A DNA stretch of 63,307 nt, counting the filler, from Klebsormidium nitens (lineage: Eukaryota > Plantae > Klebsormidiophyceae), in assembly GCA_000708835.1 (NCBI GenBank). It is 5 parts of 5 records of this genome, joined end to end, with 100 filler letters (N's around TTAATTAATTAA, not from the genome) between each part and the next. Parts side by side here need not be neighbours in the genome. Positions count along the whole stretch, not along the records: positions 49,986 to 63,307 come from DF237787.1; 4 more parts are not named here. The stretch is one strand, 5' to 3'. The notes under the pieces are model-generated. The model did not search any database, was not told the DNA's origin, and saw only the letters and a list, made by a program, of their open reading frames with translations. Below, in pieces: positions 2,741 through 63,307 of this stretch; positions within the stretch are counted from its first letter, which is position 1; every line of letters starts with the position of its first letter. The position numbers and the translations under genes were made by a program.

Positions 2741-2881
2741 TACGATCCGTGTGGCATATCCATTTGGACGGGCTCGTATCAATCTGTTTGGCAAGACTTG
2801 TCCATTAGGGTAGTCGAATATCTGTTCTGAACCTCTATTCTGCATATTCTGAGCTACATTCATTTGTCGCTTCAGTCTTGT

Positions 2882-3324: not shown

Positions 3325-3325
3325 C

Positions 3326-3336
3326 TGGTATCAGAG
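3326..3336 (+). promoter_or_regulatory. Primer-binding site complementary to the initiator tRNA-Met 3' end
   Basis: TGGTATCAGAG (canonical TGGTATCAGAGC) directly after a CA terminus and upstream of a same-strand gag. Confidence 0.75.
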
Positions 3337-4218: not shown

Positions 4219-4657
4219 ATAGGAACATACTTACATTGTAGATAACAAATACATTGTAAGTAGACCGTTACCCCATTCTGTTTCATCGGAAGGGTGAGCC
4301 CCGGCTACCGCAGCGCCGTCAAGGCGCTGCGACAATTCAAGTGTTCAGCGCCGCGAAGGCGCTTCCCGAAAGCTGCGGGGCAAATTCTGGACGCCGATTT
4401 CCGTCGTAATTTCCATCGACGGTTAAAATTTAAATTTACCAAATTTTGCTGCACGTGCGCGCGAGTCGACCGGCTGCGACGTCGCAAGTGTGTAACGCCC
4501 TCGCGTCGCTGCGAAGGCATTCACGCTGTCGCGTCGGACGCTGAGGCGACTCGGCGGCGCTGCCCGGGAATTCAGGGAATCGCCCGGTTTGCCGCAACGT
4601 CGCGACAGCGCCTTCAAAGCTTGCTCTCAACCTTCCGATGTTGTTACTCTCTCACCT

Positions 4658-30700: not shown

Positions 30701-31136
30701 TGGAGGCAGCCTTAGAATTTTGGGGGCTGTATAGCATAAAGCCAACTTATGCGCAGCTGAAGGTCAATTGCTGTACAACTCACCACCTTCATGGCATGAT
30801 ATCCAATGTGGTTGCGTGGGACGTCTGGATGGAGTCGCACTACAGGGTTAGCGCTGTGTAGGTGGTGCTCTAGATTCAAGCTTTTGAGCTCCCAATGGAA
30901 GCTCTGCAACAATTCATTTAATTCTTCATATGCTCAGCAATCTGAGCAATCCTCATCTTCATGAACACCACACGAGCCGAAGTGGAGCATTCCAAAAATG
31001 CCTTCAGGCTACTGCATTTCCCTTGCTTTGGCCCTGAGTCATTGATTGGCACCACTTGAGGCCAACCGCTGACTTCTAAGGAGTCTGATTAATCACTCAA
31101 AGTAGACCAAAGCTGAATATCTTGACTTTTCCCCAG

Positions 31137-38166: not shown

Positions 38167-39449
38167 GAGTGTAGGAACTGATTGCTTCAATCGGAAAGCG
38201 AATCGCGCGCACGCTCGAGAATGTTACGAGTGAGGTTGAATCGGCTCCGGTTTGCTGCGAAATGCAGAGCGCACAAATCTTGCGGGACGGTCCTGGTGCC
38301 GTAAAAGTTGGAAGAACAACCCGCCGAGAGTTGATCCGCCGCGTGTACTGAGTTTGACGCGCAGACATCTGGGGGTTTTTGGGACGAGAAGTATTTTGTG
38401 TTTGAACCGAATAGAAGTCCGAAAACAGCACGCATTTTCATCCACAGGAGTCTGACTCGGTGGTTTAGTTTCACTGGATGGGTTCGACTGTGCCAGAGAC
38501 TCACGGCCCGGACCGGAACGTGATGTAGCTTGACTCTGCTGCAATTCTCGACGACCACAAAGCCAGAGTGTTCTTAAAAGTGCATGTTTTACACACCACT
38601 CGATTTGAGTGTCGGCACAAACTTGAAAACTCGTTCCCCGTCAGTATCTTGATCGAAAGTATTATGCAGGCGGGACCGATCTCGAGGTTTTCAAAGCCTC
38701 AGGTCGACGGTGCCCTTGCATTGAATAAGACAATGAGTACGGTTATCCGGGAACGCGCGAGCGCACCAAGCGGGCTGCGGCGCTTGATCAGACATCATTC
38801 TACTCACTGTCAATGTGAATCGAGTATCATAATCATGACTCAGACGAGAGGCACCCTAGATTGCTTGAAGCATTGAAATACATGCGACCGCGCCCTTGTT
38901 CAACCCACACTGAAGCTAACCAGACAGAGCGCCCCACTAACGGCCCAGGGGCAAGTACACCGTGCGCAGTAGTGGAAAAACGCGAAGTTCGGAGGCGAGG
39001 AGAGGAACAAAAGGAAGAGACCTAATAATAACGAAGCGGTCGGTCTCCTCGTCGTACAAGACAAGGTGGCATTCCTCAGCCAGGAAAGACCGTACATACA
39101 GCATGCAAGAGGTCTGAAGCGGGCCAAGAAGTAGATGTATTCATGTGAGGGGATACCGGTTGAGCGAGGCTAGAACGTTTGACTAATGTACATACTAACC
39201 GAGCTATCGATCTGCAATCCTACACATGCTTGCTCAGGCTTCGGCCGTGGACCACTAGCGTTGACATACTACAAGGATGCGAAGGTATTGTCAATGCTCT
39301 AATGTGACGCTGGTATGACATTCCTGGTTGGGCAAGCACTTCGACAGATAATAATTACTATAACGACATTGACTATCAATACCTGCACGCTACCTGTCCG
39401 ATCTAGGCTGCTTCTGAGAATCCGCCATATATTCTTCTCTCAACTGCTT

Positions 39450-42400: not shown

Positions 42401-42617
42401 GCTCACGCTCTGCCCGTCCAGCACCATCTTCACCATGTTGCTCATCTGATTCGCCTTCCACGGCTCGATCGCCAGCCCCGCCCGCACCGACTTTTCGTAG
42501 CTGAAGAAGGCGTGCCTGCCGCCCGACTGTGTGAGGGTGTGATCCAGGCTGCCGAAGGGGATCCCGGCAGAGTCGAGCAGCTCCCTGTAGGCCGTCATCC
42601 CGTTCCCCAGGTCCACA
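39450..42617 (-). CDS. Virus/plasmid-type bifunctional primase-polymerase (Prim-Pol) + D5/P4-family SF3 helicase, spliced, 5'-truncated, two single-base frameshifts
   Basis: Prim-Pol motifs TQSGGRHAFF, MDLRGDGGLIILPPT; D5_N LPVKNGVIDLKDGTLKPH; Walker A GPTASGKG, Walker B VVLIDES, motif C FVVTSN. GT-AG introns 41108-40986, 40920-40806 and 40518-40059 each preserve the frame. Frameshifts at ~41980-41987 and ~41363-41366. Confidence 0.88.
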
Positions 42618-42810
42618 CTACATTGACCATCCCGTTGTCAAAAACCGCACTTTAACTAGGTACATTTCGGGGTCCCGAACTTTCCGCTGGCTGGGGCTGG
42701 CACCGTCCGATGAGTGCCACGTATAGGGACCGAGTCCAAGTCTGTCAGAATTGCACTTGTACACTGCGGCAGTACTTTCTCCGTCGAGTGTACTCGGAAA
42801 ATTCAAGGTT

Positions 42811-42999: not shown

Positions 43000-45900
43000 T
43001 GGATTCCGTAAGTAGATTCTGAAATCGAGTGAATTTGCCGCATGACAACGCATCTAAGAAAAAATTCATTCTTGCTGAAAATAACAACCTGTTAGTCGAA
43101 TGTCATGGCGTGCAGACATCCAAAAAATAGCTCACAAATATTCCATTATGCGTGGACCACTTACCGCTTTCGCAGTGCCCTTGTTGATTTTCAATACCAC
43201 AATAGTATTGTCAATGTGCAAACGAATGTGTTGACCGTTCAATGCGGTGGAATACTATAATTGTTCGAGAATGAAAACCACAGACATTTCGTGTATGTGA
43301 ATAGGTTTGACCGGCTTGGGTGCATCCGAAAAGAGAGCTTGCAACGATGAAAGGGAGAATGTCCCCATGAGAAAGGCACCATAGCCATAGCTGGAGGAAG
43401 TATCGGTCGATAAGTCATGCAAAGAAAAGGGTTTAGTAGCATATAAATCAGTTCGACCGCTAATTTATGGCAAAATTGTTGCCACATTTCACAATTGAGA
43501 AGAAGATTGGAGAAATGCGAACATGTTAATGGGATCGGATTTCACTCCATATCACTAAATCAACGTTGAAAATTACGGCCGCCATATAAACCTTGCAAAT
43601 CAATCCAAATTGCCATTCAAGTTTCTCGATTACAACGCGGAATACTAGCATGCTGCAAGGTTTCATGACCACGCGAGGAGGAGAAGCTAAACTTTCACAA
43701 TTGAGGCAAGCTTGCATAGCCACGGAATTCAATGTGATACCAAGAAACTCGATGCCTTGACATGGAGTTATACTTTTATTCGCCCGTATATTGACTCTTG
43801 AAGCCGAGTTTACGTAGAAATTTGCGGAGTGCTCAAGATGCAACCAAGCCACTGCTTGATCGACGCGATTGAGGAAGTCGTCTGCATAGACAATGATGCA
43901 ATCAAAACATAGCCGTTTCATCATCTAACAAATGCTTGCCCGACGCAATTGCATACCTCACAAGCATTTTTCGAACCGAACAGCAGGAAACCGTCTAAAT
44001 ACATATCGTCCGAGCAATCGTTGGCCAACAAAAGCCCGATTTGTTTTCAAAAGGCCAATCTGTTGCAATCAGACAGATTAGTGGGGACGTGACGATAGAC
44101 CGCTTTAATGTTCGACCTTTGCCTTGTAGCACCCACTGCTCATGAGCCGCACTGTGTCATCTACAAAGTGTAATGAAAAGTTGGGTTGCGTCTGCGCATC
44201 ATAAATTTAGCGAACGACCAAGCGGCCGTGAAACATTGTGAATTAGTCGTACAATCGTTTCAATTTTAGGGACCGGGCCAAAACTGCGCCCGAAAGCTGA
44301 TGTTCGATTGTCATCAAGGAGAAAGATTGGAATGGCAATAATATCAGAGTGGAGCGCAGACTGAATTTGGTCGCGCGCAATGCAAACCAAGTTGTACGTA
44401 TAACATTCGAACTGCGCGATAGCCGCAAAGGCTGGGGCGTAAGCCCAAGTCGCCGCAGAGGCATTTGTGCCCGCGAGCCGGGGGCAAGCCGTACCCAAGA
44501 CACAGGTTTAGTTGTTCCACTGGTCAAAGCATCGTTGGGTGGTGGACCAAACGAAGCCATTGCTTTGGACCGCGGCGCAAACCAGAAAGGAAAAGGACTG
44601 AAAGGATTTGCTCAATTTTTCACTTTAAGAGGCTGCCATGCCGCAAAGTGCTCCATGCGCGTCTGGCAGAGACTGTCGAACGGGGTGCCGGTTGCCCATT
44701 GGTTCGTCGTGTGGTGAGAAATATAAAAATCGAAAAGATTTCCAAAGGCCATCCTTGTCCCCGCACCTCGCATTCAAGACAAGCGTCATGCATCAAATCT
44801 GATATTGAGCATCTTTTGGGCCCTAAATCCCACTGCACGGCTGTCTGAAGGCGCTTGGATGTCTTCACGCTGGCAGGTCGGACCACTTTGTCTTACGTCT
44901 CGCCACATCGCCTGACATGACATGTCGGATAAGTCGCGATTGCGCCTCAGTGACACTATCTAAGACGAGCTTTTGAGGCGCTTTTCCTTTGGAGGGAAAG
45001 CACTTTTAGAGCATTGAATGAGAAAATCATCAATCAAAAGGGGCTTTGGGGGCTGAATCGGGAAGAACGTGTATAGTCGAGGCCAACCGGCCCGACTGGA
45101 GCAAGTTGCGGGCTGGAGTAGTCGAAGGCGCCCCGGTCAGCGAAAATGTATCCTCCGGAGCAGCGACTGGCGCCACAAGACATTCGACGGCGGCGCGCTC
45201 AAAATGCCATGCGTGGGAAAACGTGCAGGGGGCATCAGGACAGGCGGTTGGGCCACTAACAGAACATGGGCATAACCCGAGGGTGGTGCAGGCACGAACT
45301 GAGCAAATCAGGGGGTTCCAAGAGGGGCAACATGTTGCACTTGAGGCCGAATAGGGTCAGGGGGAGGAGAAAGGGGGGGGGGGGCGAGGGGGGGAGCGGG
45401 AAATACACTTGCTGGGATCGTGAGATTACCGTGGCCCATCACAAGCATTTCTCGATGCATCATTGCATTGCTCTTGCATTCAAAAATGCATATATAAAGC
45501 GATCAACACTTGGGTCATATTCCAAGAAAGCCAACGGAGGCGGAGGAGCCGTTGTTGCGAGAGGAATACAAGAGATGGAAGGCCTGGGGACATCATCTCC
45601 GGCGGTCGCACAGATCGAGATGGGCCATGGCTCGTGTTTAGAAGCATGAAGGAAAAGGGCATAGGCCATTGCCACCCTCACCTGCAAATGCCGCAGCAAT
45701 ATTCAACTGAATTGGACCGAGTCGATCATCAATGGTGCGGGGCGGAGGTGGGGGAGTGGAGGAGAGAGGCCATTGCCTAACATATTGTACCCCCGTCCAT
45801 AGTACGGATTAGTAGGGGGGAGGCAAGGAAGGGATCAGAAGGCCTCCTCCCACCATAACTGCTAGTCTAGGACCACATGACTGCGATGGCTGCACGGGCA

Positions 45901-46060
45901 ATGGTGCAGATGACTGCACAAATTATGATTTTTGTGCAAGTAATGATGGTCCATCAAAGTGGAGCGCACGATCAGCACCGTTGTGCTTTGCTAATGATTC
46001 ACTCACTCTTCTTCCTACATTTCCTCATCCGGATCTGCATTGCCACCAGCACTAAACCTA
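43000..46060 (-). mobile_element. Decayed DIRS-order (Ngaro/PAT-like) retrotransposon: gag-like region, RT, RNase H start
   Basis: SFGPVPK..RLIHNVSRPLGRSLN, VDDTVRLMSSGCYKAK, IVYADDFL, KSITPCQGIEFLGITLNSVAM, FSDA. These spacings are typical of DIRS-order RTs. Many stops; no tyrosine recombinase is visible before the contig end. Confidence 0.75.
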
Positions 46061-46099
46061 GATAAGATCCGGCCAAAGCTAATGCAGAGGGAGCACAAG

Positions 46100-47846
46100 C
46101 TAAAGTTGAGGGCTGAAGCGGGGTCCTTGGAGGGGATTCCTTGAAGATGGAGCGGTGGCTTATGCCGCCAGCATAAGGCTACTCGAGCTCAGAGAAGGGC
46201 CGGGGAAGCTCGGAGGTAAGAGGCGGGAGCTCAAACCCGCCAACGTGCTATTGTTCTGGCAATGTGTGCCACATGAAGGGAAAGTGCAGGTGCGTGATGC
46301 GGAGTGCCGCAAGTGCGGCAAGAGGGGCTGCACGGAGGCGGTGTGTAGGCAGATTGCGCGCGCAAGTGGCCGTGCGGAGGAGAGAATTTCTGCGGAGGAT
46401 GCAAATGGAGTAGCTTTTACGGCGTGGGGCAACGATAGGGATGTGCGCAAAGGGGTGTGGATTGTCGACTCGGGCAGCACCCAGCATGTTACGGCCGAAA
46501 GGAGCCACTTCACGAGCTACAAAGAGCTCGTGCGTGACGAAAAGATCGTGAGGATCTGTGCTGAGTCTCTAATCGCAGTGGGCATTGGAGAAATGGAGCT
46601 CAAGTAGAAGACCCCAAGCGGTGTGAGTCCGGTAACGTTGTGGGAGGTTTGGCACGCTCGGAGGGCACATGCGACTTTGTTCGCTCTGACGAGAGCGATC
46701 GACGCAAGAGCACGTGTGGTGGTGCTCGAGGGAGAACCGCCCAAATTGAAACGGACAATCTGGTCCGTATGGAGGCAGTCAAGCGTGGGGGACTGTGGGA
46801 AATTGAGACCGTGAGGAAGCAGAGAGCATTTTTTGCAAGGGGTCAGGTAAAGGGGAACCGGGTGTGCGCCACGGCAAAGGGGCCGATAAAGCGGAAGCGT
46901 GGTGAGAAAGACGGTGAAGGTCGTGGAGCTCGACCTAGACGAGTTAGACAACGAAAATGGGGGCGTCGAACGAGAGAGGAACTTCTGTGGGGGCGGATGA
47001 GGTGCCGCGTACATATCCCGAAATGGTCGAAAAAGGGGCGGAGTTTGAAGTGAAGCGCGAGAAAGATGCGCACGCGCCCGCGACGGACCGCGGTTGCGCC
47101 GAGCGCACAGATTCAAAAAGAGGCCAATGTGGGCCGATTGTGGAAATTGTGCAAGAAGTTGTGAAAGTGTTCGAGGAGATCGGAAAGGGCAATGAGAGCC
47201 CAAAGACGGCGGTAGAGAGCGAGCCCGCCGGTGTCGAATAGGCAACAGAGAAGCCTGTAGTGGAGTCCAATAAGTTGGAAAGATATTCCGCAAAAGTGCG
47301 ACGGGAGCCCGCGAAGTGGTATCGAGCAAATGTGGGAGCAACAGCGGAAGCCGTGGGAGCCGAAAAGCCGGAGCACGGAGTGGAAAAGACGTCGGTCGGA
47401 GAAGAGCGACGCAGTGCGCTACCAAAAGAGCAGAGATGGCAAAAGTGGAGGCGTCTGGGTGACGCCAAAGGCAAAGAAGACAGCCCGCAAGAGAAGCGTG
47501 ACGAGTTAGAGGCCTTAGAGTAAATTCGTCTAAGTGGAAGTGTTAGAATTTGGTGATTATGATCAGCCGGATTACTATGTGATTAGGGTTCGACCCGAGT
47601 TGAGTTTGAACTAGTGAGCGCCGGCGTGCACGAACGGCGGTTAGGCGGTTAAACCGTTTGGCGATTTGAAGGTTAGGCGGTTGAGAGCGGCCGTCAGTGT
47701 AAGCCGTAGATAAGTGCATAGAAGACTAAGATTGAGTGTGATTGTGAGCTAGGCTAGTAAGCCAAGTAGTTTGTGACGTTTAGGTTAGTAAGCCTAGTAG
47801 GCTAGTGAGCCTAGTGGAACGGAAGAGACCCGTAAGACTCTTAACA
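46100..47846 (+). mobile_element. Internally deleted Ty1/copia fragment with 3' LTR
   Basis: Degenerate knuckle CRKCGKRGCTEAVC, protease VWIVDSGSTQHVT, VGIGEMEL, post-integrase RYSAKVRREPAKWY, then an LTR. No integrase core, RT or RNase H. Confidence 0.75.
47541..47846 (+). repeat. Copia-type LTR (306 bp)
   Basis: Begins TGTTAG and ends TTAACA, directly after the Copia coding remnant. Confidence 0.65.
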
Positions 47847-48899
47847 CTTGGTGAAAACCACCAATGTGATACATCATTCCAATAGAAGGTTGTGGAGAGA
47901 AGGAAGCCGCTTGTGAGGCGCTTCGTGTGTCTTAGGATGCATGGCTGCCATCATTGAGTGATGAGCATAGGTGTCAGGCAACACGATAAGACCCGATGAA
48001 GAGTAACTCAACTACACTACGACCTCCCTACCACGAGTTTCAACAGGGCCGCTTTCAATAGGCACGGCATACTGGTGACGCCCCTCACCACCGAAGAGGA
48101 GAAGACGCGCTTCTACCTCGCCAAGCACCAACAGTTGTACTTGTGGTCGGTCGCTGGCAATGGAGTGCGAAAGGTGTTTCGCTGACACATGCTTCGGGTT
48201 CTTCGTCACCGTCAGCGATCAGCAAGTCTATTTGGAGTGTGCAGAAGGAGAAGAGGTCTCAAGCATGCAGACGGCAACCGAGCTCAAGGAGCTTAGAGGG
48301 TATCTCAGAAAGTGGGGCCCCATGGCAGACTCGTGCTTGTGCAAAGAGGGGGGGCTGCTGGGCGGGGTTATCGAGGAAACTGGATAGGGTTACCTGATCC
48401 TCGACGACTGTGGTTCCCCGCTGGAGGATGGCCCCCGGAAACCGGTGAGCAGTACAAACGGCGGGCAATTGAGAGTCGGGAACGAGCCCGAGGTGACTAC
48501 AAAGGAGGGAATTGAGTATTTGAAAGAGAGTGCGGCCGCTACAAGGGACAAGGCTGCGCGGAAGGGCCTGGGCTCATGATTCGTGGGTTAGAAGGGTGCG
48601 TGCTCTATCAGGGGGATCGGGAAGAGTTGAAGGATATCCGGAAGTTTGCGCTCGAGCCTGAACTGTGCGCATTGGATGGCATGAGCACAGGTACGGGGCG
48701 CTGAATCTGCCGGCAGTTGACGCCCGCCCTGAGAAGAAGCCAGTGGCCTTGGTACGGAGGGGCCGAGACCTTGCGCCAAGATATGACGACGGGTCCTCAC
48801 GCAGAGTTGGCATGTTGAATAAAGCATAAGGATGTGGTGGAGATGCAGAAGCATTCGCCCACCTCCAAACTTTGAGCTTTTCGAGCCACTTCCTCAATT

Positions 48900-49525
48900 T
48901 ATTTGTGTTGTCCTCCCACCTTGATCAAAGTGTTACTCCAGCAGACTGAAAGCGTCGATACAGGGGACTGGATTGGTGTCGAAAGAGGGGCAACGGAAGG
49001 CGCCTCACTTTTCCAGACGCCCACCGAAAGACCCTTGCGTCATCCATGTTGGAACCTCCTCTCCAAACCCCAAGAACTCCACAGCAGCGGCATACTCCTC
49101 CGGCAAACCCTCCAAGGCGCAGCTCCCTCTGAGACGGTTTGTCCCGCCGCCTACAAGTCTATCTTGAGCTTCCGGAATTCCCTCAGGTACTCTGCAATGG
49201 CTTTCCCCTTGGTCAACCTTAGACCCGTCAGCTTCTCTTGATCCGAATCATGCGCGCATTGCTCCTCTTCTCAAACAGTGTCCTCCAAATTCTTCCACGC
49301 TTTCTCCGCAATGGGTTCCCCCTCAATCAACTTCACATAAGCATCTTCCGTGTGGATCAGCATCAACCCCCTTGCTTGGCTTGACACTTTCCTTCCGTCC
49401 ACGGACTCCGGCTCGTCCAATGCACACAGCCATCCCTTGTATGCTAGAAGCCCACGAAACTTGGCCTTCCACGTTGACCGATTCTTACACACAATTGCGG
49501 ATTAGACACTCTGTCTCCCGCCATA
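48900..49525 (-). pseudogene. gag: Ty1/copia gag 5' fragment
   Basis: TWKAKFRGLLAYKGWLCAL..SSQARGLMLIH..AEKAWKNLE..LTGLRLTKGKAIAEYLREFRKL, with stops. Confidence 0.7.
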
Positions 49526-49885: not shown

Positions 49886-49985
49886 NNNNNNNNNNNNNNN
49901 NNNNNNNNNNNNNNNNNNNNNNNNNNNNNTTAATTAATTAANNNNNNNNNNNNNNNNNNNNNNNNNNNNNNNNNNNNNNNNNNNN
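49886..49985. other. Artificial contig spacer
   Basis: 44 N + TTAATTAATTAA + 44 N. Confidence 0.97.
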
Positions 49986-52900
49986 GTGACTACCCTAGGT
50001 AGTAATCTGGGAGTCTCAGGAGCAGTGACTGCGGCAGGTGGGTTGACCTCGTCAAACGGGCTCAACGTGAGCTCGGGAATTACGAGCTTGGGAAGTAATC
50101 TCTCCGTGACTGGCCCTATCGTGTCGGTAGCAGGAATCACCTCTTCCAACACCCTCAATGTTACAGGCACGGCCACTCTAGGCAGTAACTTGGCGGTCAC
50201 GGGGCCAATCTCTGCCTCTGGTGCGACTCTGAGCGCTGCGCTCGCCCTAGGATCCAATCTACTAAATACCACCGGCGACATTTCCACTTCGAGCAACCGC
50301 GCTGGTTCGATCTACTCCACGACGGAAAACACCAACGCTCTGACGATCAACAGCAACCTGACCGTATCAGCGGGCAGCACCACCAACATCGGGACGGATC
50401 TGAGGCCCTCGAGCAACATCGCTTACGACATCGGCACGACTTCCAACAAATGGCGGACGGTGTATGCCAGCAACTTCAACGCAGCCGGAGGCACACTGAG
50501 CGGAGACCTCAATCTCAATGCGAACAAGCTGCTGAGTACTGGAGATATTGCTACGTCCAACGCTCGGATCGCAAACGCGTACCTCTCCTTGGCAGACGTC
50601 AGCTACATCACGGCTGGCAATGCCACAGTCAACGGTTCGTTGCAGTGTACGTCCATCGATACTCAGAACAGCAACATCAATCTCGGTACGGGGGCCATCT
50701 ACGCCGGCAGTCTCAGCACGAGCAACGCGATATCCGGAGGAGCTCTGATCGTGACCAGCCTGAGTACTTCGGGTGGTGCCATCAGCGCCGGAACGATCAC
50801 CGGCACGAGTCTGAGCGCGGGGACGGGCTCGGTCAATGGAGGCACTGGCAACTTCAGCGGAAGCGTGACGGTGAATGGCGATCTGCAAGTCGGAGGAGTG
50901 TTGAACTACATCAGCAGCACCACTCTGCAGGTCCAGGACAAGAACATCGTCCTAGCTACCTCGTCCAACGCCACGGATGCCCTAGCTAGTGGTGCGGGGC
51001 TGTACATACAAGGGGCCGGTTATTCGAACTCCAACAACGCCATCTCGTGGACGTGGAATACCGGATCCAATGGCAACTACTGGCTGCCGAGGGGAGGAAA
51101 CATCTCTCTCCTGGGAGTGGCCGGATCGACCAAGATGGTCAGCCTGGTCACTTCTGCGGACGGGTCCTTCAAACTCCTGTCGGACGATGGCTCCACGGCG
51201 ACGAGCACTGCGCTCTTCGGGACGCCTCTCCTTGCAAACAGCTCCAACCTGGACGTCGGCAGCACTTCGAACGTATGGGGAACGGTCTACGCGACCACCT
51301 TGGGAAACTCCAACAAACCGATAACTTCTCTGAACGCGACTTCCATCACCAGTGGTACGATATCGAGCGGGTCCATCAACACGAACAACTCCAACATCTC
51401 TCTAGGTACGGGCAGCATCACCGGAGGGGCCGTGAGCGGAACCACTGGATCGTTCTCCGGGGGCATAACGTCTTCCAACGGGCTCACGGTGACAGCAGGC
51501 AGCTCCACCTTCTCCAGCAACCTAGCAGTGACCGGCCCTATCGTGACGGCAGGGGGCTTGACCTCGTCGAACGGGCTCTCCGTGACGTCTGGGAACGCAG
51601 TCTTCGCAGGGGGGCTGACGTCTTCCAACGGGCTCAACGTAGCTTCGGGCCCGGCGACCTTCGCCAGCAACGTCTCCATCTCAGGGCCAACTTCTTGTGC
51701 CTCTCTGACAGCCTCCGGGACCGGCACCTTCAGCAGTAACGTCTCCATCACGGGACCGACTTCCTGCGCGGCTTTGACCGCGTCCGGCACTGGAAGCTTC
51801 AGCAGCAACGTCTCCATAACCGGACCTGCGTCGGTGGCTGGCCTCTTGACGGCATCCAATGGCCTGACGGTCTCGGGAGGTTCCGTATCCCTTCCGAGTG
51901 GGTCCATCGCGGCCTCGTCCGTGGGCAACCTACCTGCGTCCCAGATAACCTCGGGCACCTTCTCAGTGGGCTCGTTCGGAAGTACGAACATTAGTACCAC
52001 GGGAACTCTTGGGGCTGGAGCGAGCACTCTCGGGGCGCTGACCTGCACGACCATAAGCACCGGAAACAGCAACATCACCGCTGGAACCGGCACGATAACG
52101 AGCGGACAGCTCAATCCCACCACTACTGCGACTTACGACCTGGGATCTTCCAATACGACGTGGAGGAACGCCTATCTTTCCGGCACGATGACGGCGAGTA
52201 ATTACGTGGGCCTGCAGCGAAAGTTGTGGAACGCAGGGGCGCTCGGCATCCAGTCGATAGCCGCCAACAGCTACTTCAAGTTGGCTACTCTGCTCGATAG
52301 TGGTAATACCGCCAGTGCACAGGGTCTTCGGATCGTCGGACAGCTGGGTGGTTTCGGGAACACGCAGACGGCGACGGTAGACTGCACCATAGTCTCTCGA
52401 GGCAACTTTTACGTGAGAGGCACTATCCAAGGCTTCATTTCAGGGGCCAAGCAGCGCGCTGACATCGTCGTCTACATAGAGACTAACGGGCAATATAGCG
52501 TCTATTATTACAACCCCGCGCAATTCTCGGTTTGGGACCTCAGCATCGAGGGCGGCTACGGTACGATCCTCTACGAACCCACCTCGACGGCCATCACTGC
52601 TCCCACAGGCACCCTCGTGACGTCATCTGTGCTGAGCATCCTCACTACCTCATCCGAATTCTCGTCAGGAACGGTGACGACGAGTTTCAACAACTTTAGC
52701 TTTTCGAATTCCGCATCGTCAGGGAATCCCGTTTGGAATCTAATCGGATCTTCAAACTCGGGATCGATACTGAGTGGCAGCATCACCAGCGGCCAACACA
52801 ACCCATCAGCCACGGCGACGTACGACCTGGGAGCATCTGGCACGGCGTGGAGGAGTGCTTACCTCTCGAGCAATATCAACGTAGGTGGTTCTATCACGGG

Positions 52901-55900
52901 TTCCAACGGCCTGACGATCTCGACAGGCTCGGTATCTTTGCCGAGTGGGTCCGTTTCGGCCTCTGCTGTGGGAAGTCTACCTGCTTCCCAGATCACATCA
53001 GGCACGTTCTCGGTGGGCTCGTTCGGCAGTACGAATATCAGCACCACGGGGACTCTGGGGGCTGGGGCCAGCACTCTGGGGGCACTGACTTGCACGACCA
53101 TAAGCACCGGAAACAGCAACATCACGGTAGGAAGCGGTTCCATAACGAGCGGTCAGCACAATCCCACTACCACCGCGACTTACGACCTGGTGCATCTGCG
53201 ACCGCATGGAAAAGTGCTTATTTATCCAGCAATCTGTCAGTCGGGGGCGCCATAACAGGGTCCAACGCATTGACAATATCAGGAACCGGCACTTTCAGCA
53301 GCAACGTCTCCATAACCGGGCTGACGACAGTGGCGGGCCTATTGACCGGTTCGAATGGTCTGACGGTGTCTGCTGGCACCGTCTCCCTGCCTAGTGGGTC
53401 CATATCAGCTTCCGCAATCGGTAACCTACCTGCATCGCAGATCACGTCTGGAACCTTCTCGGTTGGCGCGTTCGGTTCCACAAACATCTCGACCACTGGT
53501 AGCCTCAGTGCCGGGGGGACTACCGTATCTTCGCTTAGCGCGGCGACCGGCGTCTTGGGACAGAGCACGAATAACTGGGCCAAGCGGACCTTCAGCATCA
53601 CCGGTCAGACCTTGTATTCGACACCGACGTGGTGGAAGATCGCAGCGTTCTGGAACAACGGGGCTTATTGCTCCGGTTGCCTTACGATAACCGGGCTCCT
53701 CGCACGTGTTTCAGGGCCGGTGAATTTCACGGCGAACATCGGCTTCCACACTCAGAACTCAGTCTGGAACGCTTCCCTCGTCCTCGACAGTCCGGACAGC
53801 ACTGACCCTTTCGGATCGGGAACATTCGACATCGCACTCTACATCGACAACAGCAAGAATCTGTTCGTGTACGCCAAGCAAAATATGGATTATCTGACCA
53901 TGAGCCTCGATGTCACGACATGCCAATTCGAAGGGAACGTTTCCGCATCGAGCATCTATCCATCTACGTCTTACTCGCTCGCATACGCGGCGACAAACAC
54001 TCAACTGATGGCAGCAGACACCGCGCTCACGTCCGTTCTGAGCTCTTCCAGCTTCTACACATTATGCGGCTCCAACGTCCGAAAGACGAAGGGGTCCGTC
54101 TCCACCTTCGGGGGTGCAGTCACGGCTGGATCCATCTCGACCACCGGAATTCTGAGTGCGGGAGGTCTCACGTGCACGAGCAGTGCGGTCAGCGCATCCG
54201 GCACCGCCAATGCCGTAACTACGACGGATTACGCACCCTCGTTGGCAGCCGGAAATTCTGTGGTGAAATACTTTGGAGTCGCAAACACAACAAACAACTC
54301 TGCGTGGCACCTTTTCAAAAACGTAGGTGCAGGATCGACGTCCAACTACGCAGCATTTGGGATACAAGGGTTTGGTGTGGGAACTGGGTCCTTCAATGCG
54401 AGCGCTAACGGAAACTTTGGTGTTTGCACGGTGAATCCTACATACACTCTGGACGTGTCCGGAACTCTTCGAGCTAGTTCCAATTTTGCAGTTTCTGGAG
54501 GAACGGTCACTCTGCCCTCTGGATCCGTTGCAGCATCCGCAATCGCGAATCTAGATGCATCTAAGATCACGACGGGAACTTTCTCCGTAGGGTCATTCGG
54601 TACAAACATTTCCACGACTGGGACGCTGACGGCGTCTGGTGCATTCACTCTGCCTGGACGCTATTACAAGTCCTATACCATTGCTTGCGACACGACTGCT
54701 GACTGCGCTTACGAATTCGCATCCTTCACGACAGGAACTGCCACGACTCTCGATGTCACCATAGTATCCCCCAAGACGAGCAACATCGAATTCACGAAAA
54801 GGTATTCCATCACCGTCGGGAGTAGTCTGCTAACGGCGGACGGTGCTTGGAGGCGATGCATACCACTGTCCACACACAACGGATATCCGTCGAACGAGGA
54901 CTATGAGCTGCACGTGTCATCACCAGGTGCGACCACCGTCACCGGCGGATCCCAGTACGAACTGAGACTCAGACTGTTACACAGCGTCTCGACCATAGCC
55001 TCGACTATAACCGTAAACGTGACCGCTTATTATGCCCAGGATGGGCTCTTCACGACTTCGAATCTGTCGAGTACCTATGTCGAGGACACCTGGAGAACGC
55101 TCAATTATCTGCCTTCGACCGCCCTGACACAGACGGGAGGTCAGGTGGGCGTGGGAACGACCAGTCCATCCTACAAGCTAGACGTGGCCGGAAGCTTGCA
55201 TGCATCTGGGGCCGCCACATTCGATTCGACCCTGACAGCTGGGGCAGTGTCGACGTCAGGGGCGATCACCACCACGGGAACGGGGACGTACGACATCGGA
55301 ACTAATGCGAACAAATTCGGAAATCTCTTCACGGCGTACATCTACCCTACCACCTTTGTCACGAACCTCGTTCCTGTCACCCATAACGCGTACGATGTGG
55401 GAGTCTCGGGGGGCAACTACTGGAGGAACGCATACTTTGCTGGGACGGTGAATGCATCGACATTGTCCGCAAGCACGTACACCGGTCTCCCCAGAAAGTA
55501 CTGGAATGCTACGACTCAAGGCCAATACAGTGCTACGCCCGGAACTCTCTACAAGATCGGGGTGCTTCCAGCCATCGGCGATGCCTCTGGTGGTGGAGCG
55601 GTGCGGATTTGCGGATCCATGGGAGGCTTTGGCACCAATCAGAGTGTCACGGTAGACTGCACGATTGCTTCGCGAGGTGGGTATGTCGTCAAGGGCTCCG
55701 CAAATGGATACCTCAGTGGCGCAAAAACAAACGCAGACATCGTCACCTACGTTGAGTCAAACGGCAAGTTTACGATTTACCTCAAGAATCTCGGGACTTA
55801 CGTCTGTTGGGATCTCAGCGTCGAACCAGCTAGTATCAATGCAACCGTCAATGAGCCAACTTCCAGCACTGCCACCGCAACTGGGACTCTCAACACATCA

Positions 55901-57607
55901 TCGGTTCTCTCCGTGCTCAGCTCTGTCTTTGAAACGAGCACCTCGACTGCCTCCTTTGGCAACTACTCTTTCTCTTCGAATGCCGCCAACCTCACCTGGG
56001 CATCATCGGGTACCGCTACTGGAGGCTCGGTCTCTTGCGGCCCACTAACTTGTACTACCTTGTCTGGGACTACGGGAAGCTTCAGCGGTGCAATCTCATC
56101 AGGGACGAGCTCGATCCAATATGGAACTCTCGGGGCGAATTCTGCAACATTGTCTGGAGCCTTGTGCAGCCTAAACGCAGGCTCCAACCTTAATAACATA
56201 GTGATAGGAAGCCCAAGTGGACAGGAATATATCCGATTTAACAGCACCTGGTATACTGGAAACCCCAATTACCCTTATGTCATAAATTCTGGGTACGGGG
56301 GGCACATCTGTTTCAATCATACCACCGGTTCGATGTCTTTCGCAACAGCTCCTACCTCCAACATCCCCGCCTATCAGGTGAGCCCTGTAGCCGCTCTGAC
56401 GATTGACAAGAATACGAACGTGACGCTCGCTGGAACATTGACGGCCACAACGGGATCTTTTACAGGTCCTGGCGGTGCTTCGGCCGGAGTCATGAATATT
56501 GCCTGCACTGCGACCAGCACGAGCGTGATAGCTTCATCCACGTTTGCAGCAGGGCTCTCCAGCGCTACATACATCCTAAGCCCGTACGGAGTCAACACGA
56601 CGTCAGTTAACAACGCTGGATATCTCGGATTCAACTACGTGGGTGGAGCAGGCTCTTCGAGTAATTACTATGCCTTTGGCTGTTGGGGATACACTATCGG
56701 GTCGCAATCCTTCAACGCTTGTGCAAACGGAAATTTTGGGATTTGCACGGCTACACCCGCATATACTTTGGATGTAAGCGGTACCCTTCGGACGACCGGC
56801 ACCCTCACTTGCGCTGGCCTGATTCCAGGTGCCACAAACACGAGCGATCTGGGCACGACGAGCTTGTTGTGGAAAAACGCGTATCACACTGGAACGCACT
56901 ACAACAGCGGCAACGCAGGCTTCACCGCAAATTCAACCACAGCACTCACGACGGTCGCTCCCTTCCACTTCTACGGTGCTTGCGATGTCAACGGCACCAC
57001 GGCAGTTATCGGGGTCAACACTTCCGGATGCGGTCTGGTTCTGGACGACGTAGCACAAGCCAAGTGGAGGCTCGGGACGGGTGGTTATAACCTCACTTTC
57101 CAACAACATACCAGTACGTCGGCAACCAACTATGGGAATGCGCAATTCACGACCAGGGTCTACTTCAGCTCAAACGGTGACGTCAACGCATCGAGGCACG
57201 TGTACGCAGGTTCCAACGTGTACGCATCTGGGTCATGTTATAACAATGGCAATGCGATCACTTCCGACAAAAGACTCAAGACGAACGTCCGCCCAATCGA
57301 GGGTGCGCTGTCCAAGATTTGCCGGTTGGACGGAAAAGTATACGACTTCAAACCGCACAATCAGAACATGGTGAAGCCGAATTCGTCCGGCTTCATCGCC
57401 CAAGAGGTGCGGGAATTGTTCCCAGAATGGATAGCTGAGTGGGATGATGGAGTAACGGAGGCCTTCCCAGGAGAAGAGCCCATACTTTGTATCGATGCTG
57501 GTTATGGTCTGCAAGCATACCTCGTGGAGGCGATCAAAGAACTTCGAGACGAAAACGCCGCACTCAAAGCCAGAATGACCGCTCTGGAAGAACGTTGCAA
57601 TTGCTAA
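49986..57607 (+). CDS. Giant modular fibre/spike protein (>=2540 aa, 5'-truncated) with C-terminal Peptidase_S74 intramolecular chaperone
   Basis: ORFs 49986..53255 and 52733..57607 join if one G is restored at 53189-53190 (DLG-ASATAWKSAYL, matching the sister repeat DLGASGTAWRSAYL). Ser/Thr/Gly-rich repeats, YDLGxxxxxW repeats, VGVGTTSPSYKLDVAG; C-terminus TSDKRLKTN..GFIAQEV..YLVEAIKELRDENAALKARM. Confidence 0.88.
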
Positions 57608-57667: not shown

Positions 57668-58459
57668 ATGGCGCTTCCGAGCTGCTCGGCGTTGCAGAAG
57701 CTCAGACTGCGATTCGTCGCACGTATAGACACTCCGAAGTACGCCATCTTTTACGCCCTACGCAAGATGGACTCCATGGATCTATTCGAAGCCCACTACC
57801 GCATGGGGTTCGACCAGAACCGGATCGGCCGCTGCTATATCTCCCCGAAGACATGGTGCATACTCAAAGAGGACGGATTCGTCGCTCGGGGAGAGGACCC
57901 CAGGGTTTTTTTCTCGGACGGGAAGCCTTTCGTCATGGACAACACGTGGGGCGATGCTTCGCTCCTGGATCAATACAAGCGCTACGACCGTATCAGATTG
58001 CCCTCCACCGGGAAGAACCTCACGATCGTACCCGACGAGGGACGCACGCTCATGGTGGAATGGTTCAAGCCCCTCCGCGTGCACGAGACGCGAGATCTCG
58101 CAAAGGACATGTGGACGCCAAAGATCATGAGGCACGAGAACGCCGACCTCAGCTACAGAGGAGGCACGCCCGGATATAGTTGCGCGGAAAAGAACCACTT
58201 TTACGGTTTCGGACATAGGACATCCATGGATGAGAAAGTCAGGCATAGACCATTCCTCTGGATATTAGATACCGCGAAGTGGAAGGTCGTGACATCGGAT
58301 CTAGATAATTGCGACTGTTTCTCCAACAACATAGTAGATCCCACGAGCGTGGTGGAGCATGGGGGCAAGAGATATCTGGTGACTGCGGAGTCTGACCTGC
58401 CGTGGTTCACCCGACAACAACGATACTACACTTGCGTCTACGAGATGGTACTGGACTGA
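57668..58459 (+). CDS. Five-bladed beta-propeller glyco-enzyme (GH130 / beta-mannosyltransferase-like)
   Basis: Motifs EDPRVF, GKNL, YRGGT, YGFGH..RHRPF, IVDPTS in the expected order; intronless. Confidence 0.55.
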   Translation: MALPSCSALQKLRLRFVARIDTPKYAIFYALRKMDSMDLFEAHYRMGFDQNRIGRCYISPKTWCILKEDGFVARGEDPRVFFSDGKPFVMDNTWGDASLLDQYKRYDRIRLPSTGKNLTIVPDEGRTLMVEWFKPLRVHETRDLAKDMWTPKIMRHENADLSYRGGTPGYSCAEKNHFYGFGHRTSMDEKVRHRPFLWILDTAKWKVVTSDLDNCDCFSNNIVDPTSVVEHGGKRYLVTAESDLPWFTRQQRYYTCVYEMVLD

Positions 58460-58540: not shown

Positions 58541-58798
58541 TCATCCTGCTTTCATCTTGATTCCCATAGGCCCGTAAACCACACCCCCTTCATCTAACAG
58601 TTCAGCCAGTGTGCTGATGCGGTGTGTGCTCACATGAGTCAGGACCGCTTTCTTCTGGTTGGAATATCCCAGTACATTGGCGACATCATTCCCTCGAAAC
58701 CAGGGGTGTTTCTTCTCTACCCCGACCAGAAGAAATCGGACATTCTTTCCGTCCCAAATGATCAGCTGTTGATCCGCATCGAACGTGAAGTTCGCCAT
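58541..58798 (-). pseudogene. BRO-N domain protein, apparently C-terminally truncated
   Basis: HPWFRGNDVANVLGYSNQKKAVLTHV is a typical BRO-N core. The ORF stops after 85 aa without the usual later IxESGLYxL segment. Confidence 0.75.
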
Positions 58799-59165
58799 AC
58801 TTCCTCTCTACGAGAGGGCGCGAAAGAATTCCTAGACTTCTAGACGCGAGATACCGCCTGTGGCTGTTGTTACTTTCCCTAAATCGAAAGCGGTTGCCTC
58901 CTGATGTTTTTGATGTATTTGGTTGTCATGATCACGTTCCCTAAGCCAACAATCTGTCTTCCATCCAATGAATGTTCCACAAGATGATCATTGAACGGCC
59001 TTCGCGCGCCCAAGTGCCTGCATCATTGACGTTCAAATGCAGTCATGCTTTGCAGTCCGGATGGTGTAGAAAAACGTCGTGCATGGCCGCACCGGGACTC
59101 TGAGAGGTACATCCTGTCTGCGTCCCACGTGCACAATCTATGTTACTAACATATCAATATACTCT

Positions 59166-60080
59166 ATGTTTGTAACTGGTCACCTCACGGAAGGCTTCTT
59201 TGGCCGGGCACTTATCTGGATTCTAGAATTACTGCCATTCTTCAAGAGCTCCAACGAAGACGTGACTTTTGAGATAGGTTGCAAGAATTACGGCGTTCCT
59301 CCGGAGTACGATTGCATCGAACCCTATTTCGATCACAGAAGGCCAGACAAGACGCCCCGGGAGAATGCGCGAGTCGAGTCTATCACCGGATTGAAGAAGA
59401 GGCACTGGACGCATTTTACTGAATTCGAGACGCCGAACAAGTCGTGGAATGAGTATTTCTCGTTCAAGCCGCGAGTCACAAACGAGGTGAACGATTTCGT
59501 ATCCGAGAACTTTGTTGGAAGAACTTTGGGCATTCATTACCGCGGGACCGATAAGCAGGTAGGACATTGCATCCAAGGCGGAAAGATCGATTACGAAGAC
59601 ATGGATGCGATCATCGAAGACTTTTGCAGTCGGCCCGAAAAAGTTCCCGACACGATCTTTGTCACGAGCGACGAAGTGGACTATGTGACCCACTTGCATG
59701 CGAGATTCGGGACGCGTTTCCGCATAGTACACAGAGAGGATTCCATCAGGAATGCAAGAGATGTACAGAGGCCTGCGTTCTACGGGGTCGATTTGGAGTC
59801 TGGCGCGACTCTCAAGAGGTCTGACGAGCAGGTCTTTGCACTAGGCCTCGATGCCATATGCAACGCGCTTATCCTGTCAAAGTGCGATGCCGTGCTGAAA
59901 ACGTCATCCGCTCTGTCGGCGTGGGCCAAGATCTTCGAACCGAATCTGGAAGTATACAGGGTCAACGCATGCATGTACGATTGGTTTCCAGACGCAGCGA
60001 TTCCCCTCTATACTTCGTCGGACCCACTCGTACAAACGATCCTTGCAAAAACACTCTTTGGCGAACGGTCCAAAGCCTGA
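59166..60080 (+). CDS. NodZ/GT23-like (O-)fucosyltransferase family protein, 304 aa
   Basis: LGIHYRGTDK, IFVTSDE and LILSKCDAVLKTSSALSAWA correspond to fucosyltransferase motifs I-III; ATG 59166 follows an AT-rich stretch. Confidence 0.72.
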   Translation: MFVTGHLTEGFFGRALIWILELLPFFKSSNEDVTFEIGCKNYGVPPEYDCIEPYFDHRRPDKTPRENARVESITGLKKRHWTHFTEFETPNKSWNEYFSFKPRVTNEVNDFVSENFVGRTLGIHYRGTDKQVGHCIQGGKIDYEDMDAIIEDFCSRPEKVPDTIFVTSDEVDYVTHLHARFGTRFRIVHREDSIRNARDVQRPAFYGVDLESGATLKRSDEQVFALGLDAICNALILSKCDAVLKTSSALSAWAKIFEPNLEVYRVNACMYDWFPDAAIPLYTSSDPLVQTILAKTLFGERSKA

Positions 60081-60082
60081 CT

Positions 60083-60883
60083 CTACCAAGATGCAGCAGT
60101 TCCCCTGATCCTCAGCACGCGCTCTGGGGCGTAAGGCTCCCCACATTTTTCACCGCGATAGCCCCGTTGGTTTGAGAAGACCAACGTCCCGTCTGCATCC
60201 TGCTTCGTGTTGTAGTGCGTGTGGCCGTGAGCCCACGCCACCACGGGCGGGCCCATAAACTCGGTCAGGTCCGTGCCGAACGCGTAGTTGGTCGGTCTCC
60301 CTTCGTAGGCCGGTGCGGAGACTCCCTTCCGCAACGGAGCATGGTGCGTGAGGACCAGCACCGGCTCCCGTCTGCCCTCTGCCTCCAGAATCGCCTCCAG
60401 AACGAACTCAAAGTCTCTCTCGTGCAGGGCGTTGGTGTCTTCGACGGTGAGCGGACGGAGGTCGGCCCCGACCTTCTTGCCGATGCGGACGTAATCGTTG
60501 ATCGTATTGCGCACGACGTCTCTGGCATGGTCCGGGACGCGACTCCACAGAGTACAACCGATCACCCTGACGCCTCTGAGCGAGATGCTCTTGCGGTCCA
60601 TGAAGTGCACGTTGTCGTGCTTCTTTGCGAGCTTCGCTATCTTACTCTTTACCTCCTCGTATTCCCCACCGTAGAACTCGTGATTCCCGGCGATTATCAG
60701 GACGGTCTCGAACTTCCTCGAGAGGTCCTCCACGAGCGCCGCGTACTCCGCGCTCCTCGGTTCGCTGATGTCTCCCAGTAGAGCGATGTGGGGTGCTACG
60801 GCCGGAATGATCGGTAGCTCTTTAGAATGCTCCATCTCCATGTGGAGATCGGATACTATCTGGATGTCCAAGCAGGCGGCCAT
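60083..60883 (-). CDS. Calcineurin-like metallophosphoesterase
   Basis: All five metal-binding motifs present: SDLH, GDI, GNHE, THH, HGHTH. Confidence 0.92.
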   Translation of the reverse strand: MAACLDIQIVSDLHMEMEHSKELPIIPAVAPHIALLGDISEPRSAEYAALVEDLSRKFETVLIIAGNHEFYGGEYEEVKSKIAKLAKKHDNVHFMDRKSISLRGVRVIGCTLWSRVPDHARDVVRNTINDYVRIGKKVGADLRPLTVEDTNALHERDFEFVLEAILEAEGRREPVLVLTHHAPLRKGVSAPAYEGRPTNYAFGTDLTEFMGPPVVAWAHGHTHYNTKQDADGTLVFSNQRGYRGEKCGEPYAPERVLRIRGTAASW

Positions 60884-60969
60884 CTTCAGCTGCTAGTACC
60901 TCCTGATAGAAGATTTTGCAGGATCGAAACGTACCAACCATATTATCTGGCGTCTGAGTATACGAGCCA

Positions 60970-61242
60970 ATGGCGAAGTGTGGCGCGAAGACCGCATCCG
61001 GTAAAACCTGTCGTAGGACGGTGTCCTCCGGTCACAAGTGCTGCTATCAACACAAGCGGACCAAGTCCGGCAAAAGAGCGGTGCCGAAAAGAATGACCAT
61101 GAGAGCCCACCCTGCCAACGCCGACCGCATCCATCAGCTGACCGAGAAGCTGCTGAGAAAGGGTCTCACCAGAGTGGAGATGAAGGAGCTGAAGCGGCGC
61201 GTGAGATCTAGGGACGAGATGATGAGATCGTTCTGGCTCTGA
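60970..61242 (+). CDS. Small basic protein with CCCH zinc-finger motif (DUF5763-like)
   Basis: CGAKTASGKTCRRTVSSGHKCCYQH, followed by a Lys/Arg-rich helix. Confidence 0.6.
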   Translation: MAKCGAKTASGKTCRRTVSSGHKCCYQHKRTKSGKRAVPKRMTMRAHPANADRIHQLTEKLLRKGLTRVEMKELKRRVRSRDEMMRSFWL

Positions 61243-61305
61243 AACCCGACTCGTACCATATGGGCCCTCGCCTATCCCTGCGCCATCATGTCGCAAACCA
61301 TATGC

Positions 61306-63262
61306 CTATCCCGACCTGGTTTGAAGGTCTGAGGCATCGGGTCTAGGGGTTCTATCCCGCGGCGAAAGAAAAGGGGGATCATGCGATGCGTCATCCTGCA
61401 CGAATTTTATCTTGGTCACCCCATCTGCCAACAGTTCTAGCTCGGCGAGAGCCTTCATGACGGTAAGCATGAGCCGGTTCTTATTTGCCAGTCTGACGTC
61501 GACTTGCTGAAAGTTTGTGCGATGCGACACGAGAAAAGTCATTTGTATCTTTTCATTATCAAACTGCTTCATGTTCAACGTCACCTTTGGGTACCACTGC
61601 TCAGGGTTCGCTTGTAGGAAGCGCAAGATGCACGCTCTCATCTCTTCGATTTTCTTCTGAGGGGTGCCCCAGCCCAGCGCCAGATCGATGAGCTCGATCT
61701 GATCGGGGGACCTGTAGTAATTGCTGATAACTTTCAGAGCCAGTTGATTGTTGCTGTAGTATACCTTGCTGTTGTCCGCTGCTAGGAGGATCGTGGACAG
61801 CAGCTGCATCTCTTCCACCACGTACGTTTGCCCGTCCACCCGGATGATATCCGAAACGTCAAAGGGATGCGTTACGAAGAGGAAGATTATGGATTCGAAG
61901 ACGGTCTTGCAGGTGTTGCCAAAGACGAATAGGGAGGCCAGGAAGGATCCCGACGTTACTACGAGCAGCTTCTGCACGTTGACGTCGAGCACGAAGAGGC
62001 ACATCAGGACGACGATAACTCCCACCACCCAATCCAACAGCCTGCCGAGGGATCTTATCGCAGTCTTCGTATCGCTCAGCGTCAGAGCCAATGCCTTCCG
62101 CTCACGCACCACGTTGATGAGCCAGTTCTCGAACGATTCGCACGTCACCACGCCCTCCTCGCTCTCGAAAGCCTAGAAAGCCCGCTCGGCGTCGCTTTCC
62201 TCCAAGAAATGGAACAGGATGAATCACCATATGATGTCTCCCCTCTGGTACCACGTTCTTGAAGATGTCCCTCGCGGCGTCCCGTCCGTGCTCCTCGCTC
62301 CGGACGTCCCTCTGCTGCTGCGTGGAGATGGTCGTGATCTTGGTGCTGCGCACGAAGCGCATGATGCTCTGGAACGTCCGAACGCCGAGTTGCCCCTGAG
62401 AGAGCGTAGCCAGGATTCCCACCTCCTCCTGGGGTTCGCCGCGTATGCCGGTCGTCGCCGAGCTGGAAGATCTATTGAGCATGTAAGCAGGTATGGAGAG
62501 TCGTTCTATGACGTAGTGGTCGAACATGGCGTCCCTAATCCTCTCGAAGTAGGCCTTTCGGTGGAAGGCGTTCGCGAGGATCTTGATGAATATCATTTTT
62601 CCCGCCATCACGAGGGTGGCGATCTGAGTGCACACTAGTATCTGATTCACCTTTACCGGTATCTTGCCCACGATCTTCCTTCTCCCGTTGAAGAGGACCG
62701 TCCAGACGCACAGGACTTGCAGGCACCAGATCACGTTCCAGGCGGACCTCCGCACCCCGTAAGCAACGTACAGTATCTTTCCGTTGTCCTTGAAGATCAT
62801 CTGGAGTAAGAAGATCATCGTGTACACCAGAACCCTTCCTATGAGCCTGCCCGAGAGCAGGGTCAGGAGCAGGACGGTCCACTTCCAGACCTCCAGCTCC
62901 GCGATGGTGTACCTCGAGAAGAAGAGCAGGGAGATCACGATCTGCGCTACCAAGTAGGCACCCAGCGTCACCTGCCCATATGCGAGCAATCTCCTCGAGA
63001 GACGGGTCTCGCGTACCGTGGAGGGGGCCCGAGGATCCTCCTCGTCCTCCTCGCCCTCTTCCTCCTCCGAGAGGGCTCCCAATATCGACGTCTTTGGTAC
63101 CTCGCCGGTCTTTATGGCGTCCAAGACCGCCGAGTGTGGTACGTTGTGCATGTTCCCCTGCAGCGGTCCGCTCACCAAAACCGTGGGTTCGAAGTCCCGA
63201 GACTTGGTCATCGACGCCCGCCGCCCGAATTTCAGGGAAGCGCTTCGCTTGTAGTCCTGCAT
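61306..63262 (-). pseudogene. Intronless plant-type MscS-like (MSL4-10 class) mechanosensitive channel, disrupted
   Basis: LEVWKWTVLLLTLLSGRLI, ILYVAYGVR..VIW, KILANAFHRKAYFERIRDAMF, FVFGNTCKTVFESIIFLFVTHPFDVSD, SNYYRSPD, WYP. Frame break at ~62218 and in-frame TAG at 62175-62173. Confidence 0.9.
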
Positions 63263-63307
63263 CTCCTCATTTTCCACCAGAATATTATCACGGGAATTAG
63301 CATAACC

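Follow-up and report, generated by a model that had tools for sequence, protein, structure and literature searches.

An intronless plant-class mechanosensitive channel pseudogene among virus-like genes of Klebsormidium nitens, and its possible origin from an integrated giant virus

Viral ion channels and endogenous giant viruses of the alga Klebsormidium nitens are both known, and the viral mechanosensitive channels described in the literature consulted are small and prokaryote-like; a six-helix plant class would be new among them. The described cases (Greiner et al. 2018, PMC6163359) come from large DNA viruses of algae and protists and, like the present one, are known from genes. They comprise an MscS of Aureococcus anophagefferens virus (AaV; YP_009052121, 261 aa) and MscL-like proteins of Tetraselmis virus 1 (TetV-1) and Cafeteria roenbergensis virus (CroV) with 101 aa. 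All are prokaryote-like (25–29% identity) with one to three transmembrane helices (TMs), in contrast to the six TMs of the plant class. A preliminary description of the present DNA also mentions prokaryote-type Msc homologues in a few giant viruses. No report of a plant-class MSL in a virus was found in the open-licence literature. We analysed a window of 63,307 nucleotides (the whole stretch of joined DNA from the K. nitens assembly GCA_000708835.1), in which positions 61306 to 63262 hold a broken, intronless gene for a plant class-II (MSL4-10-type) mechanosensitive channel. We regard it as probable that this is a dead copy left by an integrated giant virus, that the gene had been captured from a streptophyte alga and that the intact protein would serve as a tension-gated valve.

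The channel is like AtMSL10 (PDB 8tdj, 8jwe) and Flycatcher1 of the Venus flytrap (FLYC1; 7n5d) in having six helices, a cytoplasmic linker between TM4 and TM5, an MscS cage and a pore with a Phe gate, a Gly kink and a Lys, at an overall identity of approximately 31–37%. Unlike these, the gene of the putative viral clade described below is intronless and stands in a viral context, and its product has a shorter linker, an N-terminus of approximately 84 instead of 165 residues and no death-signalling domain. The AaV MscS matches the core only (13% identity). A protein of Sylvanvirus, a soil giant virus, has a similar length and an MscS-family label (A0A3G5AH92 in BFVD, 651 aa), but the match is weak (12% identity, TM-score 0.16, E 3.5e-3). 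The setting is like that of the captured plant expansin and U-type cyclin genes in contigs of K. nitens that resemble nucleocytoplasmic large DNA viruses (NCLDVs) (PMC5294986), where plant-type genes also lie amid viral genes and a fused gene model is an artefact; the gene family is a different one.

The gene lies on the minus strand where the preliminary description had placed it, between the start and stop codons given in Table 1. Its first reading frame extends to approximately 62218 and is followed by a 2-nt frameshift, a short stretch, an in-frame TAG and a 3′ frame of 288 codons. Two in-frame deletions were also found, one of 12 nt near 62463 in the cytoplasmic linker and one of 6 nt near 61376. 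The window copy cannot function as a channel. A broken open reading frame (ORF) had only been hinted at in the preliminary description. The C-terminal piece matched PF00924 above the cut-off (MscS β-domain and cage) and was similar to AtMSL10 and Flycatcher1 with an E-value of ~1e-53, compared with 7.5e-08 for bacterial MscS. These values, the fold match to AtMSL10 and the tree all place the protein in the plant MSL4-10 class and not with bacterial MscS, as had been proposed.

Publicly, the gene is contained in the K. nitens gene model KFL_008380070 (GAQ91717), which is letter-for-letter identical to the window over 344 and 196 MSL residues and over 257 residues of the next ORF, a metallophosphoesterase. 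The fusion of MSL and metallophosphoesterase in this model (60083-63262) was rejected: the model splices across both breaks and an intervening opposite-strand ORF. Since it splices round the breaks into a separate gene, the fusion was judged an artefact. The databases list a false MscS–phosphoesterase protein derived from this model.

To place the gene on independent sequence data, four of 24 listed sequencing runs, all four of DNA, were used. No RNA run was among those listed, which has no bearing on expression. Their contigs align along the MSL gene without joints, which shows that it has no introns, in line with the preliminary description. In X1, the run with the most words, approximately half of the depth at 62218 carried two extra bases and half was as in the window; at the 12-nt and 6-nt indels, approximately half of the depth again followed the window, and the remainder, which stems from the second copy, was without them. 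Thus, there are at least two copies, and the frameshift and both indels are specific to the window copy. An assembly error as the cause of these lesions was rejected, as the window form is seen in approximately half of the X1 depth. This depth evidence covers the frameshift and the two in-frame indels; the TAG is not among the 40 of 153 rows listed. The second K. nitens copy is GAQ90635 (P0004), which is 97% identical to the window MSL and whose gene model leaves out 64 residues, a stretch with gapless coverage in X1.

A soil metagenome run, X5, yielded five contigs that tile 61327-63304 at approximately 93–97% identity. The frameshift is absent from the contigs of X5 and X6, and the X5 sequence differs from the window on both sides of the MSL gene. 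Third codon positions account for 23 of the 34 listed differences between X5 and the window gene (32 of the 34 in the best X5 contig and two others). Synonymous changes make up 22 of the 33 changed codons, and 12 of 13 within 62597-62900. These mostly synonymous differences fit purifying selection before the window copy died.

A search of 90% clusters, of which the best 120 of 371 matches were listed, returned four rows with 83–99% identity (P0004, P0005, P0002 and P0003) and 116 rows with 39–45% identity, all named ones among the latter being land plants. The four close rows are the two K. nitens virus-type copies and two full-length environmental ORFs of 653 aa (P0002, P0003). Searching with the N-terminal region added P0123 (711 aa, 115-kb contig), and an exhaustive search (best 150 of 3115 listed) added P0126, P0127, P0128, P0199 and P0226. 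P0126 and P0127 are probably halves of one split gene because both list a 40-kb contig; P0273 (592 aa) belongs to the cluster of P0128. The contig of P0002 measures 32 kb, and those of P0128 and P0273 measure 54–56 kb. The environmental proteins, all from metagenomes, are approximately 30–86% identical, and several are full-length and intronless. P0199 and P0226 are very divergent members of 575–580 aa in which the gate Phe and a large part of the linker are missing, and their sequences suggest that they may have changed function. A scan of IMG/VR with the C-terminal piece of the window copy reported one relative and no locus.

A host gene retrocopied recently and inserted into the viral DNA once this had integrated would likewise be intronless and lie in an algal genome. 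The four close rows among the 120 listed are the virus-type copies and environmental ORFs named above, the best row outside the clade in the exhaustive search is 38% identical, and the intact intronless relatives span the wide range of identities given above. With no near-identical spliced parent in the searches made, this explanation, which the preliminary description had set against its own, is largely refuted and scarcely credible.

For a structural view of an intact relative, P0002 was modelled with AlphaFold from a 68-row alignment (mean predicted local distance difference score 81.5, predicted template-modelling score 0.75). The N-terminus of the model is disordered over approximately 84 residues and leads into four membrane helices, after which come a linker domain, TM5 with TM6, and the cage; the six helices span residues 85-116, 127-158, 163-193, 202-257, 381-431 and 436-471. 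The extra helices ahead of the linker and the soluble N-terminus of about 85 residues had both been described correctly. By sequence, P0002 matches AtMSL10 over residues 105-616 (E 5e-76); by fold, the model matches AtMSL10 with an E-value of 7e-27 and a TM-score of 0.82 by target length, compared with ~5e-08 for E. coli MscS, and it superposes on 8tdj over 530 columns.

Conservation is highest in the pore helix. Identity to P0002 in TM6 is 58% (P0123), 72% (P0273) and 97% (P0003), whereas the termini are least conserved, with 19%, 11% and 61% in the N-terminus, respectively. The positions F553, G556 and K560 of AtMSL10 are F, G and K in P0002, P0003, P0123, P0273 and the window copy; the window copy and four of the six environmental rows aligned have retained the gate Phe and the kink Gly, the Phe being lost from P0199 and P0226. 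Both residues control AtMSL10 (PMC10560256). In Flycatcher1, basic residues of the portal determine the conductance and the preference for chloride (PMC8844309). In the window copy, I, T and N take the place of the Flycatcher1 residues R599, K606 and K624, and all six environmental rows aligned have lost the Arg, so that the preference for chloride may be weaker than in plants. The two lysines are missing from AtMSL10 as well, and we take the loss of portal basics as a mere hint of weaker anion preference.

Phylogenies were calculated with FastTree (145 rows: the window copy, 17 picked rows and representatives of at least 480 aa) and with IQ-TREE (quick searches on 46 and 27 hand-picked rows). 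Ten representatives could be named, among them Chlorokybus, Mesostigma, Spirogloea and Myrmecia; the outgroup and the labels of 'chlorophyte-like' rows other than Myrmecia are our assumptions. The window copy and the environmental rows form one clade of ten rows including the two K. nitens copies (SH-aLRT, an approximate likelihood ratio test, 100 in the 46-row IQ-TREE set). Both programs place this clade outside the land-plant subclades, and in IQ-TREE its branch unites with land plants and Spirogloea with a support of 96, Mesostigma and Chlorokybus having branched off earlier. Branch lengths inside the clade equal or exceed those across land plants, and P0199 and P0226 sit on a long branch. 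A grouping of all green rows without the clade was rejected by the approximately unbiased test (p-AU 0.012). The comparison with streptophyte MSLs suggested in the preliminary description thus gave a long-branch clade within green-plant MSLs, and a green-plant origin of the clade is supported by these sequences.

From 49986 to the window end, 12,639 of 13,322 bases (95%) are coding and form a dense, intronless run of virus-type genes (Table 1). The metallophosphoesterase has relatives of 28–31% identity at two loci in IMG/VR, one in a giant-virus bin and one in a different viral contig, one look-alike cluster of the GH130/DUF1861-like ORF is mostly Nucleocytoviricota, and a small Cys/His ORF of the type seen next to the window MSL also adjoins the second MSL copy. 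The fibre gene decays alongside the MSL copy; both genes are broken, and with P0004 the host assembly contains a second, diverged MSL copy. All 30 bins of the segment are covered by the soil metagenome X5. The fibre-like gene exceeds 2,500 codons, with several diverged copies in X1 and relatives in X5. The placement of the MSL gene in a virus-like run (S74 fibre, Bro-N, metallophosphoesterase) therefore stands, but the spliced host genes with which it had been contrasted lie on other contig pieces: a linker separates the run from them, so that the contrast between intronless and spliced genes is one between contigs. The sequence ends at this linker continue the repetitive fibre gene, no contig bridges the linker to host DNA, and no host–virus junction is visible for the segment. 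Several NCLDV inserts are known in K. nitens, and for most of them no host junction is visible (Gallot-Lavallée and Blanc, PMC5294986); methylation is enriched on its viral genes (Sarre et al., PMC12344493). The window MSL locus was not found in one supplementary file of the latter paper, and 'Mechanosensitive' and 'MscS' are absent from a portion of the supplement text of the former, whose main text was not searched for them.

Table 1. Coordinates of the MSL pseudogene, its parts and the neighbouring features in the window
Feature	Position	Strand	Remarks
Intronless plant class-II (MSL4-10-type) mechanosensitive channel pseudogene	61306..63262	-	ATG 63262, stop 61306; ~650 codons in intact relatives
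MSL 5′ part	62219..63262	-	short soluble N-terminus with acidic patch, TM1-TM4, shortened cytoplasmic linker
MSL frameshift	62216..62220	-	2 nt shorter than other copies
Premature in-frame TAG in MSL	62173..62175	-	
MSL 3′ part	61306..62172	-	TM5, pore helix TM6 with Phe gate and Gly kink, MscS β-domain, cage
Artificial 100-base linker	49886..49985	.	lies between host-type DNA and the virus-like run
Very long repetitive fibre gene, C-terminal S74 chaperone	49986..57607	+	frameshifted near 53190; 5′ end cut by gap
Probable GH130/DUF1861-like ORF	57668..58459	+	lead only, recognition below threshold
Bro-N fragment	58541..58807	-	
Probable NodZ/FUT8-like glycosyltransferase ORF	59166..60080	+	lead only
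Metallophosphoesterase ORF	60083..60883	-	wrongly fused to MSL in public gene model
Small basic ORF, CxAxT...C..H (HGGxSTG-like) motif	60958..61242	+	weak matches only

Four identical 100-base linkers, at 6705, 27638, 42811 and 49886, each consist of 44 N, a 12-base all-frame stop and 44 N; the window is thus made up of several joined contigs. The piece 27738-42810 carries a host histidine kinase/receiver gene and, at 39453-42598 on the minus strand, a broken primase/D5-helicase gene, a viral or mobile-element remnant joined directly to host DNA. Elsewhere in the window, decayed pieces of a long terminal repeat retrotransposon with gag and protease matches near the start were seen at 866-5575, a host F-box/PI31-like gene at 19770-21320, a LysM-domain gene at 24537-26834 and, by eye, copia-like retrotransposon remnants at 45900-49500.

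The proposal of the preliminary description, a capture by a giant virus that would have started from host mRNA, is partly supported by the plant class, the lack of introns, the virus-like neighbours and the clade; a number of observations weigh against it. No NCLDV hallmark gene was found within the visible 13.3 kb of the segment (the public scaffold of the locus has 31,392 bp), and the annotations of the neighbouring genes match phage families as well. The trees come from quick searches, and a grouping of streptophyte host rows without the clade was not rejected (p-AU 0.17), leaving the nesting among streptophytes unproven; taken together, the two tests support an origin among green plants and make a streptophyte donor, on these sequences, likely but not proven. 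The viral nature of P0002, P0003, P0123, P0126/7, P0128/P0273, P0199 and P0226 rests on single ORFs in metagenome assemblies. A search of giant-virus genomes for intact copies had been suggested; no MSL locus came from scans of IMG/VR with P0002, P0123, P0273 and two neighbour ORFs or from scans of JGI metagenomes with P0003 and P0123, and neither the giant-virus bin nor the viral contig with a related metallophosphoesterase has an MSL in its record. Similarity and profile searches returned no other K. nitens class-II MSL by name, so that no donor was identified. Further scans were also negative: a DNA pattern of the pore motif matched one unrelated, prophage-like contig in IMG/VR, without an MSL by tblastn; GTDB searched with P0002 and the GenBank phages yielded no match; and a profile search with the MSL alignment returned five proteins, none a host Klebsormidium gene. 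Two other MscS-family genes of K. nitens are listed in the supplement of PMC4052687.

Some of these points would equally suit a clade that is not viral. It might then consist of MSL genes without introns belonging to hosts of the Klebsormidiophyceae type, or travel with another mobile element, and the environmental ORFs would be algal DNA. The clade sits after Mesostigma and Chlorokybus, where a gene of Klebsormidiophyceae is expected; no other class-II MSL of K. nitens came up by name; no hallmark gene is visible; and the GC content at third codon positions is no separator (0.71–0.81, against 0.61–0.76 in host genes), neither it nor CpG giving a convincing separation. Yet the window copy lies within the dense coding run, next to the fibre gene, Bro-N and further genes of viral type, and decays with the fibre gene, the whole run recurs in the soil metagenome with reshuffled flanks, and the branches inside the clade are at least as long as those across land plants. 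We therefore consider a non-viral lineage unlikely.

According to the reading that we favour, a virus-borne gene for a turgor valve, a green-plant, probably streptophyte, class-II MSL lost its introns and stayed intact throughout a deep clade, and copies of it reached K. nitens with virus-like DNA, where the window copy decayed; these steps are shown or supported by the observations above. The carrier would be a nucleocytovirus of Klebsormidium-like algae, and the intact protein of 590–710 aa would assemble as a heptamer in the plasma membrane of the host. There it would open as membrane tension rises upon rehydration, hypo-osmotic shock or wall loosening, and would let out anions and osmolytes and relieve water pressure, so that the infected walled cell would not burst before the virions are finished. 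MSL8 protects rehydrating pollen in such a way (PMC10560256). A wider proposal, which we put forward only tentatively and which is rather doubtful at present, is that an unisolated lineage of terrestrial giant viruses captured a plasma-membrane MSL from a streptophyte alga before or around the time of the land-plant ancestors and kept it conducting while it diversified into a clade confined to viruses, whose depth equals that of the family in land plants; combined with the viral expansin, the channel might give the virus control over the wall stiffness and the turgor of a walled host cell alike.

The main functional rival to such a valve would be a role in entry like that of the chlorovirus channel Kcv. 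The channel would be packed in the inner membrane of the virion, open by itself on fusion with the membrane of the turgid host, depolarize the cell and lower turgor for DNA ejection. Kcv is a precedent in a walled algal host (PMC10583209), the gate is intact in full-length members, and a nearby fibre gene with putative glycan enzymes is compatible with a block of virion and entry genes. A heptamer of ~650-aa subunits with a large cytoplasmic cage would, however, be far bulkier than Kcv, and the MSL neighbours differ between copies, so that linkage says little. On balance, an entry role is quite unlikely.

Cell-death signalling of the MSL10 type, which the preliminary description had considered, was rejected. 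In MSL10 the death-signalling activity resides in the N-terminal domain, residues 1-165 (PMC10560256), and the phosphosites of this domain show little conservation even between plants (bioRxiv 726521). That domain is absent from the clade: the N-terminus of approximately 84 residues is not alignable to MSL10 before residue 105 and is the least conserved part. A broader form of the idea is that the viral subunit co-assembles with a host MSL and blunts the swelling or death response, or triggers MSL10-like death for release. Death signalling is a separable role of MSL10, which also assembles with MSL9 into heteromers (PMC10560256); a decoy subunit might do without the long N-terminus, as the viral form does; and the gate Phe is lost in P0199 and P0226. 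But with the death-signalling domain absent, triggering of death is unlikely, and the pore helix is the best-conserved part of the main clade, as expected with selection on conduction. Signalling of either kind is therefore very improbable.

If a six-helix, plant-class MSL has indeed been kept under selection in viruses, a virus would sense or relieve the membrane tension of its host. If true, this would point to an infection strategy for walled relatives of land plants that dry and rewet, whose giant viruses are known from genomic traces alone in the literature consulted. The compact full-length forms without the N-terminal signalling domain and the portal Arg would offer natural tests of the parts of these channels that govern gating and anion preference.
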